The notes beneath the pieces are model-generated. The model searched no databases. It was not told where the DNA came from and was given only the letters and a program-made list of their open reading frames with translations. This document shows positions 1 through 5,100 of a stretch of DNA of 5,100 nucleotides, piece after piece. The stretch's first letter is position 1. Each line of letters opens with the position of its first letter. A program made the translations under genes and the position numbers. Source of the DNA: Dictyostelium discoideum (lineage: Eukaryota); assembly GCA_000004695.1 (NCBI GenBank), contig CH709170.1, positions 1-5,100 on the forward strand. The letters run 5' to 3'.

Positions 1-96
1 TTCTTTTAACATTCTAAAAAATTATCTTAAATATTTGGGAAATTCAAATAAATAAATGTTATTCATAATATATATATATATATGATAATATAAATT
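1..96 (-). mobile_element. DIRS-1-type left ITR, outer ~85 bp only (partial, continues past the window start); belongs to a further minus-strand copy nested into ORF1 of the next copy
   Basis: The reverse complement of 14-96 matches the outer end of the ITR at 4684-4770 (atttatattatcat(at)n attatgaataacatttatttatttgaatttcccaaatatttaagataattttttagaatgtt). The match breaks at nt ~13, inside the heat-shock element (gttaaaagaa versus gttctagaac). The ITR terminus (tgataatataaat, 83-95) abuts unrelated sequence at 97. Confidence 0.75.
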
Positions 97-782
97 GGTA
101 AGAGTACTTCAGAACCATAGATTTCTTTTGCGATGTTGTTACGACGGACACGACTAAGCGATGCTTGAGCATTAACAGCTAAGACGATTGCACTCTGAGT
201 TAAGTAACTAATAAGTTCTACATCGACATTAGAGCTATCAGATGATAACATACTTGACATGAGAAGCAAAGGTTTCAAGCTATCGTTGATTCGCTTTTCG
301 ACAATCAACAAGTCAGTATCATTGTTCTTGACGTTGGATGATACAGTAATACCTTCAGGTGTACCGAATGGAGCGACATTCACTTGGAAGTTAGATGGAA
401 AGTTGAATACTTTATTCAATTCGGATATCTCATCTTTCTTGAGGATACATTCTTCTTCGACGAGTAAACCTTGATTGTTTACCATATGTTTGTACTGACC
501 AAGTAAGGTATCGGATAATTGATAATCGGTTGGAACTTCGACATTGTTACTTGATTCATCTTCACTTTGTTCATTCTCGGTGTCAGAGTTATCATGAGAA
601 GGTTGGCTACTTGAATTGGTATTAGAAGAGAACATAGGTTCTTTCATGAATCTTGTAAAGGCTAAGGAAAGGTTGTTGATTTGATCTTCCATTGATTTCA
701 TTCTTAAATCAAAGGATTCAGCGCTATTAGAGGCAGAGGTACTACTACTAGAGGCTTCGTTATTATTAACAGTGGTAGACAT
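97..782 (-). CDS. DIRS-1-type ORF1 (putative Gag-like protein), 5' portion (~228 codons). It is 3'-truncated at ~97 by the nested ITR; the track ORF 63-782 reads through into ITR (AT)n as ...LLPIYIIIYIYIL.
   Basis: ATG at 782 lies 120 bp downstream of the inner end of a left-ITR copy in the same orientation, which is the position of ORF1 in DIRS-1. The product is Ser/Asn/Asp-rich with an acidic N-terminus. The frame is open on one strand only; the opposite-strand ORF 259-474 is a shadow. Confidence 0.6.
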
Positions 783-1056
783 ATTTTATTGTTGATATCT
801 AAAATTATAATATGAGAAAAAAAATAATAATAAAAATTAATAAAGAGAAATAATTATTTGTATAAAATTTGTGTGTGTGTGTATCTTAAATATATATAGG
901 AGGAATTCCCAAATAAAATAAATCAAATTGTTTTAGTTTTTTGTGCCACTATTTATACGTTTTTATTTTCTTAAAAATTTCGCAAAACTCAAAAAAAATA
1001 AGAGTTTTCGACCCTTTACAACTTTGTGCATAGTGTCGGTTCGGAATTTTTCAGAG
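783..1056 (-). mobile_element. DIRS-1-type left end: 5' leader (783-901) plus the inner ~155 bp of the left ITR (902-1056). The outer ~175 bp, including the heat-shock element, is missing.
   Basis: This is the reverse complement of 4862-5100, with 1-2 mismatches per 60 bp. It includes GGAATTCC (902-909) and the (TG)6 microsatellite 870-882, which corresponds to (CA)6 at 5035-5046. Identity stops abruptly at 1056/1057 (..ggaatttttcag|agaaagtaaagc.. versus ..ggaatttttcag|ttttttcgacc..). Confidence 0.8.
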
Positions 1057-1083
1057 AAAGTAAAGCAGGGGAAAACTATATTT

Positions 1084-1086
<3 letters not shown>

Positions 1087-1132
<46 letters not shown>
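1087..1132. repeat. poly(dA)46 homopolymer
   Basis: Uninterrupted A run 1087-1132, preceded by 30 nt of unique sequence that follows the truncated ITR. Confidence 0.95.
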
Positions 1133-1134
<2 letters not shown>

Positions 1135-1159
1135 AATAATTTTGAAAATTTTGATTATA

Positions 1160-1418
1160 TTAATTTATACACACAATTTCATTACCAAAAAATACTTGGT
1201 TATCGGAAATATAAACTTTAAGATTGTGGTTTTTTTCACCTTTTGAATAAATGGCTAAACTGTCAGCTACTTTTGTTCTTGTGTTACTTTTCTTATTACT
1301 TACCCATTTCGTTAACCTTTCAAAAATATTTTGACTGGTACAATCTTCGTTACTACCACCAGCTTGTTTAATTATTCCAGTAATAAAGAAATTTGAAACC
1401 TATTTATTTAAATTTAAT

Positions 1419-1456
<38 letters not shown>

Positions 1457-1720
1457 ATTAATCTGGTAACATACATCGCCATCTGAATAGTATTTACTTT
1501 GACAAACTTTCTGAAGACTTTCGTATTCCAATATGTATGTTACACGTGGGTTTGTGGCTATTTGCACTGTTTCTTGGATTGGTGGAACAGTTGGCCTTGG
1601 AACTCTTCTAATTATTATTCTCTGGTTTTCCATTGGGTTTGGAGCATTTGCATTTCCTAATACATTACCTATTGACAAATTATTAAATGATTCATCTCCG
1701 ATAGAAATATTATTGTTTTA
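1160..1720 (-). pseudogene. Unassigned reading frame of about 186 codons on the minus strand with a single in-frame TAG (1400-1402) and a K10 tract encoded by the dT run. It is either a disrupted gene or an unusual exon.
   Basis: Track ORF 1400-1678(-) is ..NPRVTYILEYESLQKVCQSKYYSDGDVCYQINSL K10 LLNLNK*. The same frame continues after the TAG as VSNFFITGIIKQAGGSNEDCTSQNIFERLTKWVSNKKSNTRTKVADSLAIYSKGEKNHNLKVYISDNQVFFGNEIVCIN*, with stop at 1160-1162. Apart from the internal TAG there are no stops over ~560 nt of ~25% GC DNA, which is unlikely by chance. Codon usage is Dictyostelium-like (A/T third positions). No ATG start was found. Confidence 0.4.
1421..1451. repeat. poly(dT)31 homopolymer, opposed to the A46 run 288 bp upstream
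   Basis: Uninterrupted T run 1421-1451. It is read as K10 by the minus-strand frame. Confidence 0.95.
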
Positions 1721-1913
1721 TCTTCTTTGGATTGGTGATTGGTTAAAATCAGGTACATTACCATTCGGTGCTATAAAATTTGCAGATGAATTCATTTTAA
1801 AAAAATATGTATTGAAATCATTTTGGCTTTTTCAGTCTGCCCGAAAATGAAAAAAAAATAAAAAAAAAAATCATTTTTTACATAACAATGTAAAAATTAT
1901 GTAAAAAAGGTTT

Positions 1914-2360
1914 TTAATTTTTTAATTTTTTATTTTTTGAAGCCGAGAATTTATCGTGGCATTTGTAAATTATAAGGTAATTGGTATCATCAATTTGAAT
2001 TGGTATAACATTATTTAGAATATTATCATATGTAATATAATTTAATTCATTTGAAAGAAAATGGTATTTATTAAATTGGTCACCAACATATTTGTCAAAA
2101 TAATTTAATAATATTGCATGTTTTATTATGTTATCATCCATTTCAATCATTGATATTGAATTGATAATACCTGACCATCTACCTGAAAGTTCATTATCTG
2201 ATGCAACTTCAACTGCATCACCAACATTGTATATTTCTTTATTATTTTTAATTGATGAGTGAAAAGTTATATTTTTATAATTTTGAAATAATGAATCTAA
2301 TTTAATTTTTATGTTATCTAAATTATCTGGATTTTTTATTTTGTATCTGGCGTGGCGGAC
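1914..2360 (-). CDS. Unassigned AT-rich ORF of 148 codons, host-like and N/K/I/D-rich. No ATG before 2150, so it is probably a 5'-truncated exon or fragment that begins exactly at the compositional boundary.
   Basis: The minus-strand frame is open from the TAG at 2361-2363 down to the TAA at 1914-1916: VRHARYKIKNPDNLDNIKIKLDSLFQNYKNITFHSSIKNNKEIYNVGDAVEVASDNELSGRWSGIINSISMIEMDDNIIKHAILLNYFDKY...KNKKLKN*. The track lists only the ATG-initiated part 1914-2150. Confidence 0.4.
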   Translation of the reverse strand, partial: VRHARYKIKNPDNLDNIKIKLDSLFQNYKNITFHSSIKNNKEIYNVGDAVEVASDNELSGRWSGIINSISMIEMDDNIIKHAILLNYFDKYVGDQFNKYHFLSNELNYITYDNILNNVIPIQIDDTNYLIIYKCHDKFSASKNKKLKN

Positions 2361-2430
2361 CTATATGCTAAAGAATACACCAGTTTTTAGGGCATACCTT
2401 AAAAGTTTCGTAACAGCAAAACGATTATTG

Positions 2431-3355
2431 TCAGCAACCTAATCTAGTGCCCTGTACCCCCCTTATTGACTTAATTAGTAAAACGTCTACGATGGACTCA
2501 TGGCCATTAATAGCAACAGCTCCTAGTGCATAATTAATTCTTTTTTGGAAATGGCCATTTTCAACAGCACATTCCAATGCATCATTGATGTTTTTTTGCA
2601 TTGCTCCGACTAATAAGGGTTTAGTAGTACATACAAATCATCTGCTAGGCAGTCTGCAGTAGTTGGGTGATTATTGCTAATAGCCAATTTTAATGCCTCC
2701 CACCTATCTTCTGCTGTAGATGATTTGTCAAAGAGGAACGCAACAATGGCATCATGGCCAAGCATAGCAGTATTTTTTATTTCCTTACCCATTTGTGCTT
2801 CTGGCATCTTTCATAGGAAGAGTTTAATAATCGAGAGGTAACCATGCGCCACATCATTTCAGAATGCTATATTGTGTTGTTCCGTTACCTTATTCGAATC
2901 TAACATGAACTTTACAATAGATATGCGCTCATTCTTGAAAGAAGATCGGGAAGAGCGATTCGGCTATGGTATCTTCTGTTGCCCTATCTAATAAGAACTC
3001 CACGATAAAAATAATTATTCTGTATAGTCGCGATTACGAGGGCCCTATTTATATTTTCTAGTGTAGCATTATTATCTAAACTTAACTTTTGTTCTACAAT
3101 AGAAAGATCATTGTTTCTATCTGCGAAATGTAGTGGTGTTTGTCCAAGATAGTCTTTTGCATTTACATCAGCTCCCTTGTTAAGGAGGAGTTGTATGGCT
3201 CCTTCTAATCTAGCATAATGGAGCGGAGTTCTGCCTCGATGATCTGTTTTGGTTATATTTTCACCTTTTTCTATAGTCAGTTTTACTTTTTCTACTGTTT
3301 GAGTTGTTATCGCTATTTTGATCAAAAAGTTTGATCTCGGTTCGAATTTTGTCTC
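2431..3355 (-). pseudogene. Ankyrin-repeat protein pseudogene with at least 3 frameshifts or stops, in a block of higher GC (~38-40% versus ~22-25% around it)
   Basis: Four ankyrin-repeat segments lie on the minus strand in different frames. Segment 1: HRGRTPLHYARLEGAIQLLLNKGADVNAKDYLGQTPLHFADRNNDLSIVEQKL (track ORF 2984-3325, TTG start is an artefact). Segment 2: ERISIVKFMLDSNKVTEQHNIAF (~2855-2925). Segment 3: AMLGHDAIVAFLFDK..ADCLADDLYVLL (2610-2807). Segment 4: NDALECAVENGHFQKRINYALGAVAINGHESIVDVLL (2434-2592). Segments 3 and 4 are joined only by a 1-nt frame change near 2610-2640. No single frame spans them. Confidence 0.6.
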
Positions 3356-3423
3356 TCAACAGGTTGATTCTTAAAAATCAAGTCTAAACTCATTGGATGC
3401 TTCGTGACTATATCTATATATTT

Positions 3424-3775
3424 AATTAAAAATTTAATTTATTAAATTATATTTTATATTAAATATATATATATATATTATGAATATCATTTATTCATTT
3501 GAATTTCCCAAATATTTAAGATAATTTTTTAGAATGTTCTAGAACATTCGAAGAATAAAAAATTTTCGAAAGAAAAGTAAAAATTTCGAACCGGCACAAT
3601 GACGCGATCATTGTGTAAGGTCGAAAAAACTGAAAAATTCCGAACCGACACTATGCAAAAAGTTGTGAAGGGTCGAAAACTCTTAATTTTTTGAGTTTTG
3701 CGAAATTTTTAAGAAAATAAAAACGTATAAATAGTGGCACTAAAAACTAAAAAACAATTTGATTTATGGAATTCC
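3424..3775 (-). mobile_element. DIRS-1-type right ITR (352 bp). It comprises a ~39-nt terminal extension absent from the left ITR (3424-3462), followed by ~313 bp shared with the left ITR. A 24-bp right-specific spacer (3776-3799) follows.
   Basis: 3463-3775 aligns with 4688-5015 at a few percent divergence, with one 8-nt indel. The shared part ends at GGAATTCC (3768-3775). The outer 57 nt are complemented by the ICR. Confidence 0.8.
3532..3553 (+). promoter_or_regulatory. Heat-shock element in the right ITR, oriented to drive plus-strand transcription, i.e. antisense to the YR gene
   Basis: GAAtgTTCtaGAAcaTTCgaAG is four contiguous alternating nGAAn/nTTCn units. A TATAAATAG is present ~190 bp downstream at 3725-3733. 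Confidence 0.65.
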
Positions 3776-3799
3776 GACTAAGTGCGGATGGGATGGGAC

Positions 3800-3884
3800 T
3801 AATATATATATATATATTTAATATAAAATATAATTTAATAAATTAAATTTTTAATTTATATTATCATATATATATATATATATA
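3800..3884 (-). other. DIRS-1 internal complementary region (ICR), 85 bp: complement of the left-ITR 5' terminus followed by the complement of the right-ITR 3' terminus
   Basis: 3800-3856 is the exact reverse complement of 3424-3480 (57/57), which is the outer tip of the right ITR. 3857-3884 (ttatattatcat(at)n attatgaa) equals the first ~30 nt of the left ITR (4684-4715). It lies immediately after the YR stop at 3885-3887. Confidence 0.8.
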
Positions 3885-4685
3885 TTATGAAATTTGGACG
3901 ACAGTATTTAAGAAACCACCAGATTTTTCACCAATGATTCTTTTATCGTAGAAGGTATCTACAGTATCATTTGATTTCCAACGACCCATCTTCTTGACAA
4001 CGTGGAACGGAACGTTATTGGACAACAGCAGAGAAGCCATAGCGGAACGGGTAGAGTGAGATTTGAACTTGGCAATATCAATGCCTGACTTTGAGAGTGT
4101 TGATAATACAATTGAATTAATATCATTAACTTGGAGCGGTTCACCCTCATTCTTAATAAAGACAGAGTCACCCGAATGGGGCTTTCTTCTTCCTTTAGAG
4201 GCTCTAAGGTATGTTGCAAGGTGGCGAACAGGGCATACTTGAGAGTTTGTATCATCTAACCATGTTAATTCTAAGATTGAAACAACACCACTTCTTTGTT
4301 CTTTAGCATTAATAACTGGACCTTTGATTGAGTCAGTAGTATTAATGAGACCTTTGAACGACCACTTCACCAAGTCTGATGATCTTGCTAAACCAAACTT
4401 TTACAGAGAACAAGTGTCTTGTTTAATAGCGCAGTGTATGTGTACTTAGGGATGACTTTGATAGTAGATAAGTGCTTGAATACTTGGTTTGCATCCCATA
4501 TCTCTTTATACTTTGCAGATGAAGGACGCCACTTGTGAATACCAGTCATTATTCTTGTGATGAATGGATCATTAACAACATCAGTTTGATTCCTAACTGG
4601 AGCTATATACTTTGAGAGTGGAAGGTTCCCAAGACTTCATTAACAGCTCAGCTGTTTTTGTATTTGTTGTACGAGCGAAGGACAT
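3885..4685 (-). pseudogene. DIRS-type tyrosine recombinase (YR), near full length (~266 codons) but split over three frames
   Basis: Frame A (4685-4596): MSFARTTNTKTAELLMKSWEPSTLKVYSSS*. Frame B (4636-4401): ..IMTGIHKWRPSSAKYKEIWDANQVFKHLSTIKVIPKYTYTALLNKTLVLCKSLV*. Frame C (4400-3885; track ORF 3885-4373): FGLARSSDLVKW..SQVCPVRHLATYL..KFKSHSTRSAMASLLLSNNVPFHVVKKMGRWKSNDTVDTFYDK. These contain the YR hallmarks: N-terminal TLKxY, the L..K..LL.L....R.SDL box (broken by the second frameshift), CPV..L..YL, and the catalytic H-x-x-R ... GRW ... Y. Confidence 0.8.
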
Positions 4686-4764
4686 TTATATTATCATATA
4701 TATATATATATTATGAATAACATTTATTTATTTGAATTTCCCAAATATTTAAGATAATTTTTTA

Positions 4765-4786
4765 GAATGTTCTAGAACATTCGAAG
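4765..4786 (+). promoter_or_regulatory. Heat-shock element of the left ITR (sense promoter of the downstream element)
   Basis: gaatgttctagaacattcgaag is identical to the HSE at 3532-3553, with perfect GAA/TTC pentamer phasing. Confidence 0.65.
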
Positions 4787-4958
4787 AATAAAAAATTTTC
4801 GAAAGAAAAGTAAAAATTTCGAACCGGCACAATGACGCGATCATTGCACAAGGTCGAAAAAACTGAAAAATTCCGAACCGACACTATGCACAAAGTTGTG
4901 AAGGGTCGAAAACTCTTATTTTTTTGAGTTTTGCGAAATTTTTAAGAAAATAAAAACG

Positions 4959-4967
4959 TATAAATAG
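4959..4967 (+). promoter_or_regulatory. TATA-like box (TATAAATAG) inside the left ITR
   Basis: It lies in a GC-poor context ~45 bp upstream of the ITR inner end. Its distance from the HSE (~175 bp) is longer than in typical heat-shock promoters, so the assignment is tentative. Confidence 0.3.
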
Positions 4968-5100
4968 TGGCACTAAAAACTAAAAACAATTTGATTTATT
5001 TTATTTGGGAATTCCTCCTATATATATTTAAGATACACACACACACAAATTTTATACAAATAATTATTTCTCTTTATTAATTTTTAATATTATTATTTTT

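Follow-up and report, generated by a model that had tools for sequence, protein, structure and literature searches.

Opposed homopolymers in a Dictyostelium discoideum contig lie in predicted GT-AG introns of a truncated transposon gene copy

We analyzed a window of 5,100 nucleotides from Dictyostelium discoideum (contig CH709170.1, positions 1 to 5,100), in which an earlier note, made from the letters of the sequence alone, had drawn attention to two opposed homopolymers and to a long minus-strand frame that runs through one of them. The region very probably represents a dead copy of a three-exon gene, of which the 5' part is left; the copy is truncated at a DIRS-1 repeat, and the gene is the second of two in a DNA transposon of about 5 kb. 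Both homopolymers are predicted to lie in two ordinary GT-AG introns, and the opposed homopolymers, the in-frame stop and the lysine run are normal Dictyostelium gene anatomy viewed unspliced. The minus-strand frame is the already annotated gene DDB_G0294326, and intron 1 is already contained in its deposited model; the feature, in other words, is ordinary and already known, and consists of standard introns in an annotated D. discoideum contig. The features of the window and of the related elements are summarized in Table 1.

Table 1. Features of the window and transposon copies at paralogous loci (positions are those of the window unless a locus is named)
Feature	Coordinates	Strand	Size	Basis or remarks
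Truncated DIRS-1-type terminal repeat	817–1054	+		Inverted-repeat comparison and junction comparison
Exon 3 remnant	1053–1075	–	first 23 nt	TTTTCCCCTGCTTTACTTTCTCT, encodes FSPALLS; L001 homology ends at 1053
Intron 2 (predicted)	1076–1174	–	99 nt	GTGTGT...ATATAG, about 6% GC; holds A46 (sense T46) and TAA 1162–1160
Exon 2	1175–1399	–	225 nt	Paralogue alignment
Intron 1 (predicted)	1400–1474	–	75 nt	GTATGT...AAATAG, 9.3% GC; holds T31 (sense A31), K10 and TAG 1402–1400
Exon 1 of the gene of the 270-aa family	1475–1795	–	321 nt	ATG 1795–1793; carries the inactivating TAA 1720–1718
Spacer between the two transposon genes, including the 5'-flanking sequence of the second	1796–1913	–		Aligns with paralogous loci upstream of the ATG
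3' end of the putative transposase gene (about 814 aa)	1914–2344	–	last 142 codons and stop	Abrupt edge of the homology to full elements at 2344
Shadow ORF, not a gene	1533–1850	+	105 aa	In register with the sense frame at third codon positions
Element at L001	L001 2383–6505		4.1 kb	Duplication GG
Short derivative at L001	L001 8251–9008		758 bp	Duplication TA
Element at L002	L002 1456–6511		5.1 kb	Duplication CT
Element at L004	L004 543–5576		5.0 kb	Duplication TG

Both tracts were found where the earlier note had placed them (A46 at 1087–1132 and T31 at 1421–1451, with a gap of exactly 288 bp), and they are the only runs of A or T of at least 12 nt in the whole window. The long minus-strand frame was likewise present as described, with T31 read as a run of lysines (K10); its stops are TAA at 1720–1718, TAG at 1402–1400 and TAA at 1162–1160. 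We counted the stops of this frame and found three over positions 1160–1831, compared with 18 and 30 in the other two minus-strand frames over positions 1100–1900. In 2000 shuffles of 1160–1831, the best frame contained 11.7 stops on average and never fewer than four, and the frame is accordingly a real coding signal, as had been supposed from its length. It does not, however, begin at about 1720 without an ATG, as had also been supposed: the frame can be followed upstream as far as an ATG at 1795–1793 (MNSSANF...), which makes the TAA at 1720 a second internal stop and not the beginning of the frame. The conceptual product of the frame matched 19 proteins, all from D. discoideum or D. cf. discoideum, and the deposited protein P0003 (DDB_G0294326, strain AX4) was 100% identical to it.

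We rebuilt P0003 exactly from the window, with the ATG at 1633, an exon to 1475, an intron at 1474–1400, an exon at 1399–1171, an intron at 1170–1076 and an exon at 1075–963. Together with the exact match of a neighbouring ORF (66–782) to DDB_G0294324, this reconstruction identifies the window as the AX4 contig that carries the annotated gene. Introns were found at equivalent positions in six related copies, namely the window and the paralogous loci L001 to L005: the deposited proteins P0001, P0004, P0012 and P0066 were reproduced exactly using two GT-AG introns at equivalent positions, and the L003 copy aligned at the same intron positions. In P0001, P0004 and P0012 (270–280 aa), the sequence ...YYSDGD/VSNFFITG... 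(the slash marks the exon junction) is continuous over the junction of intron 1, with neither a lysine run nor a TAG, and the spliced product of the window reads YYSDGD/VSNFF and GNEI/FSPALLS, as in these three proteins. Intron 1 (1474–1400) stood out among all GT...AG intervals that cover the TAG without closing the frame. The TAG forms the last three bases of intron 1, and the intron sequence around it shows no coding conservation. Intron 2 (1174–1076) emerged from a base-level alignment of the window with two paralogous loci. The GC content was 28–34% in exons, 6–9% in introns and 18% in the intergenic stretch 1796–1900, and exon 2 measured 225 nt in the four closest copies (L001, L004 and L002 among them) and 219 nt in L005.

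Splicing would remove the lysine run together with the TAG, and would thereby give a protein collinear with the full-length paralogues of 270–280 aa. We infer splicing in vivo from this comparative and sequence evidence and from the deposited gene models, although these models may in turn be predicted ones. Of the four explanations put forward in the earlier note, the one that came closest to this structure was an exon pair flanking an unconventional intron: an intron is present, although it is fully conventional (GTATGT...AAATAG, 75 nt, 9% GC). In comparison with the spliceosomal introns of D. discoideum, both introns share the GT donor, the AG acceptor, a length of 59–99 nt among the copies, a very AT-rich composition (6–12% GC, with about 30% in the exons), homopolymer runs and positions conserved among paralogues, and intron 2 also shares a T-run ahead of its 3' splice site, which ends 11 nt before that site. 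No substantive difference was found; the two runs (31 and 46) are among the longer ones, but the paralogous loci contain similar runs of 25–34.

The same comparisons bear on two of the other explanations, namely that the stretch is a processed retrocopy of an mRNA with A46 as its poly(A) tail, or that the TAG is read through, and on the related idea that K10 is translated. Such readings draw only on the superficial look of a long A-run beside a coding frame, and we consider them refuted. Both introns are retained, and A46, which reads as T46 in the sense orientation, falls within intron 2; in four of the five paralogues, intron 2 carries a T-run (T18–T34) at the corresponding position, and the fifth, L005, carries A24. 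The TAG is intronic, and neither it nor the lysine run is present in the proteins of the paralogues; in every copy, translation continued into intron 1 would run into stops. Moreover, the lengths of some introns differ between copies by numbers that are not multiples of three, and the length of intron 1 in L004 is itself not a multiple of three (Table 2).

Table 2. Lengths of the two predicted introns and their homopolymers on the sense strand in six copies of the gene
Copy	Intron 1 (nt)	Intron 1 run	Intron 2 (nt)	Intron 2 run
Window	75	A31	99	T46
L001	75	A31	87	T34
L002	60	A17	83	T24
L003		A16		T20
L004	59	A21	68	T18
L005 (most divergent)	84	A15	71	A24

Alignment with the paralogues indicates that the window copy is a pseudogene fragment, in which a nonsense change is combined with a 3' truncation. 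At 1720–1718, the window has TAA and the four aligned paralogues (L001 to L004) have ACA (Thr). We considered an intron GTAATG...CAATAG (1761–1669, 93 nt) that would remove this TAA. The interval has 27% GC and is exon-like, and L001 to L004 read through it as conserved coding sequence with ACA at the position of the TAA codon; a nonsense mutation was preferred. With regard to the truncation, window positions 1053–2344 align with L001 5731–4452 at 97.7% identity over 1292 bp, and the alignment ends abruptly on both sides; the window holds only this internal piece of 1.29 kb of the transposon. Exon 3 is cut after 23 nt, about 245 nt of the gene are missing, and the paralogues extend for about 90 further codons, which cover most of the invariant positions of the family. 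At a divergence of 2.3% from L001, the window copy may have arisen by recent duplication and need not be an old relic. The earlier suggestion of a pseudogenised host gene was thus right about the pseudogene, given the nonsense codon and the truncation at the 3' end, but the gene is borne by a transposon and does not belong to the host.

It is possible to ask instead whether DDB_G0294326 works as annotated, that is, as a protein of 166 aa that starts at the Met at 1633 and ends in a third exon (1075–963) reading into the repeat. The deposited AX4 model exists, and it can be reproduced from the window with GT-AG introns. However, its intron 2 donor lies at 1170, 4 nt downstream of the donor at 1174 used by the rebuilt paralogues, and this shift changes the frame, with the result that the last 35 residues of the model are translated sequence of the inverted terminal repeat (ITR). 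The model also ignores 54 conserved upstream codons, which are cut off by the TAA and for this reason leave the internal ATG at 1633 as its start, and it is devoid of the conserved C-terminal stretch of about 90 residues that holds most of the invariant family positions. We consider it very unlikely that the gene functions in the annotated form. These comparisons suggest that the third exon of the AX4 model is an annotation artefact made of translated DIRS-1 repeat, and that the model as a whole represents a pseudogene fragment of a transposon gene.

The repeat at which the gene copy ends (817–1054) recurs at 3463–3753 and 4684–5100, in inverted and direct orientations, and is devoid of the outer 179 bp or so that are seen in the fuller copy at 4684–5100. 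The breakpoint between repeat and transposon lies at 1053/1054 and not at 1056/1057 as first placed, and the junction shows 2 nt of microhomology. It may stem from illegitimate recombination or from a deletion during nested insertions. The 30 nt between the repeat and A46, which had been described as unique, are made up of the last 10 nt of intron 2 (1086–1077) and about 20 of the 23 nt of the exon 3 remnant (1075–1053); the tail of intron 2 after the homopolymer measures 11 nt (ATGAAATATAG, 1086–1076). An ORF1-like gene at 63–782 adjoins the repeat, the ORF at 66–782 being exactly DDB_G0294324, and an ORF at 3885–4373 belongs to the Phage_integrase family (E = 1.6e-10). The presence of both inverted terminal repeats and a tyrosine-recombinase ORF in the window agrees with the architecture of DIRS-1 (PMC5633606), although the part encoding reverse transcriptase, RNase H and methyltransferase is absent from the window and all of the DIRS pieces are fragments. 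DIRS-1 is the neighbour that truncates the copy of DDB_G0294326, and the gene itself is not part of DIRS-1.

The family of the 270-aa protein is a real coding family under purifying selection, as judged from a dN/dS of 0.24 at a dS of about 1.0 between L001 and L002, which are 75% identical. Among 1.84 billion representative sequences, 11 matches to this family were found, and all those checked came from the D. discoideum species complex. Pfam scans of the spliced product and of a full-length paralogue gave nothing significant, and the AlphaFold model of the protein was of low confidence (pLDDT within 33–34) and unusable. On the plus strand, the ORF at 1533–1850, which had already been taken as an antisense shadow, had no Pfam match. 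It was open only in L001, which is 98% identical to the window, and was interrupted in the paralogue L002 (75% identical), with no open stretch longer than 52 aa; this ORF is therefore an antisense shadow and not a gene. As to codon statistics, codon-position GC does not discriminate between the sense frame and the antisense ORF, whose third positions coincide; conservation among the paralogues does, and was used instead.

We further analyzed the possibility that the intronic A31 pairs with U46 and loops out exon 2, leading to skipping of exon 2 or to a back-spliced circular RNA, and that the second gene of the transposon is regulated in this way. The observation in the earlier note that the two tracts can pair was borne out in silico: in the folded sense RNA (1500–1053), a helix of about 32 A/U base pairs was present in both the minimum-energy and the centroid structures (–81.7 kcal/mol, z = –2.55). 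In five of the six copies, one of them from D. cf. discoideum, the A-run of intron 1 and the T-run of intron 2 are both kept despite a dS of about 1, and the length of exon 2 (225 nt) is divisible by three, so that skipping would keep the frame. However, the complementarity is not conserved, as in L005, the most divergent copy, the runs of both introns are A-runs (A15 and A24), which have the same polarity and cannot pair. Long A/T runs are common in the non-coding DNA of these loci, an 11-kb paralogous locus containing 10 A/T runs of at least 16 nt, five of them of 25–34 nt, and such homopolymers are unremarkable for the D. discoideum genome. In addition, the tract lengths vary freely (16–31 and 18–46), as replication slippage predicts, the T-run ahead of the 3' splice site amounts to a normal polypyrimidine tract, and the window copy is in any case a truncated pseudogene. 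If true, the pairing would equip this Dictyostelium DNA-transposon family with a splicing switch of its own, acting on the second gene, but we regard it as extremely unlikely. The simplest reading is that of AT-biased, slippage-prone intron sequence, in which the T-run doubles as a polypyrimidine tract.

At every locus, the gene with the two ordinary introns follows a large gene of about 814 aa on the same strand, and in the window, the open frame at 1914–2342 matches the C-terminus of the 814-aa product of L004. Inverted repeats of about 300 bp with 70% identity were found at the ends of the L004 element (543–843 versus 5576–5282), and four elements carry the terminus CACAGC(A/G)A(A/T)GAAAA at each of their ends. 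Target duplications of 2 bp matched at all four complete elements, each in a different flanking context, for which the probability by chance is about (1/16)^4. These terminal inverted repeats and target duplications indicate that the unit of about 5 kb is a cut-and-paste DNA transposon (class II, TIR order). The 814-aa protein is a putative transposase, with conserved blocks of acidic residues that are candidates for D/D/E and of Cys/His (CxxC/DxxH-like). The family comprises 27 matches with 40–96% identity, all from D. discoideum or D. cf. discoideum, and both transposon proteins thus appear to be confined to the D. discoideum species complex among the named relatives found. Neither the 814-aa protein nor any of 17 family members had a Pfam match (E ≤ 1 for the family members), a profile search of the PDB with the family returned nothing, and the AlphaFold model of the protein (pLDDT 34) was unusable.

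Tdd elements encode an integrase-like transposase with the catalytic domain of retroviral integrases (rve) (PMC2836005). Membership in Tdd-4 or Tdd-5 was rejected, as neither the 814-aa protein nor any of the 17 family members gave an rve match at E ≤ 1. On the basis of its type, its size class of about 5 kb, the absence of a Tdd-type integrase domain and its DIRS-rich genomic context, the element is probably a DDT element. Elements of this name (DDT-A, DDT-B and DDT-S) were reportedly described by Glockner et al. in 2001. The DNA transposons of D. discoideum fall into the Tdd, DDT and Thug families, whose transposases are without similarity to known ones (PMC5633606), and the centromeric regions consist of about 49% DIRS and about 19% DDT, heavily fragmented by nested insertions (PMC2665215). 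In agreement with DDT, the element is a putative cut-and-paste transposon of about 5 kb that is bounded by terminal inverted repeats, its putative transposase resembles no known family, and it is present in multiple, fragmented copies interleaved with DIRS-1; the fragments that flank the window and the paralogous loci are of the DIRS, Skipper or rve type. By contrast, the complete copies found here measure 5.03–5.06 kb and the DDT-B consensus measures 5,471 bp (PMC9012585).

The element termini, the 2-bp duplication, the two-gene layout and the restriction to the species complex may aid the curation of the little-studied DNA transposons of D. discoideum, unless they are already contained in the original repeat survey. 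We take the CAC termini, the 2-bp target duplication and the acidic and CxxC/DxxH-like blocks to resemble those of DDE elements of the CACTA/Mirage/Chapaev type; however, the 17 family members had no match to Pfam Transposase_21 or related families at E ≤ 1, and the element was not assigned to this group. Finally, the short derivative at L001, which has the same termini as the full element, presumably recalls DDT-S.

Complete copies of the two-gene transposon, which carries a putative transposase gene of ~814 aa and a gene of the 270-aa family, were located at three paralogous loci (L001, L002 and L004), as summarized in the table below. The large protein contains the conserved blocks LLRIFTDG, GLTMDIPEFRSSC...CHTCDKPR, QPDILHNILLG and SAERFEAQ, which we take to be reminiscent of DDE transposases of the CACTA/Mirage type; no Pfam model picks up these blocks. 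In the deposited 814-aa model from L004, the 104-nt segment at 2647-2750 is treated as an intron. This segment lacks AT-richness and, when translated, matches residues retained as coding sequence in other family members; the proposed intron may be a prediction artefact bridging a frameshift in the L004 copy. A 758-bp element at L001 8251-9008 has the same CACAGC... termini, inverted relative to each other, together with a 2-bp duplication of its own (TA); it appears to be a short, non-autonomous form derived from the 5-kb transposon.

Coordinates of the features in the window and at the paralogous loci
Feature	Location	Strand	Details
Complete two-gene transposon copy	L004 543-5576		2-bp target duplications; termini start CAC
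Complete two-gene transposon copy	L002 1456-6511		2-bp target duplications; termini start CAC
Complete two-gene transposon copy	L001 2383-6505		2-bp target duplications; termini start CAC
3' part of the DDB_G0294326 model	window 963-1174	minus	intron-2 donor and exon 3
Ankyrin-repeat coding stretch	window 2345-3400	minus	raised GC (37-40%)
57-nt inverted repeat	window 3424-3480 and 3800-3856		perfect; very AT-rich
Tyrosine-recombinase (Phage_integrase) coding region	window 3885-4690	minus	ORFs 3885-4373 and 4388-4549

The 270-aa gene has a divergent subfamily at L005 5001-5833 (P0066, profile E = 1e-21), where both intron positions are kept and both introns contain A-runs (A15 and A24). The presence of a large gene (584-aa model) upstream of this divergent gene suggests a second, older transposon subfamily.

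The annotated AX4 gene in the window, DDB_G0294326, is probably a mis-annotated pseudogene. Its model takes an internal Met (1633) as its start, owing to the TAA upstream, and places the intron-2 donor at 1170 instead of 1174, the position used by the paralogues 4 nt upstream. The frame is consequently shifted, so that exon 3 (1075-963) is mostly translated DIRS-1 terminal repeat.

At 2344/2345, the transposon fragment adjoins the ankyrin-repeat coding stretch. Here, the coding sequence is spread across all three frames with numerous stops, and the stretch looks like a decayed ankyrin gene. The single intact ORF within it (113 aa, 2984-3325) has one 98%-identical relative, P0072, from another D. 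discoideum assembly; its remaining matches are generic ankyrin sequences of ≤60% identity over partial length, mostly from metagenomes.

The arms of the 57-nt inverted repeat flank a 319-bp piece with a DIRS-type repeat fragment, and (TA)n tracts lie at several repeat-fragment boundaries (68-86, 3466-3480, 3804-3818, 3868-3886 and 4696-4712). Both features may have been left in the DIRS mosaic as scars of recombination or insertion. The Phage_integrase coding region is broken across at least two frames and, judged by this disruption, the DIRS-1 piece that contains it is also degenerate. This piece is 85.6% identical to the segment at L002 6512-7617.
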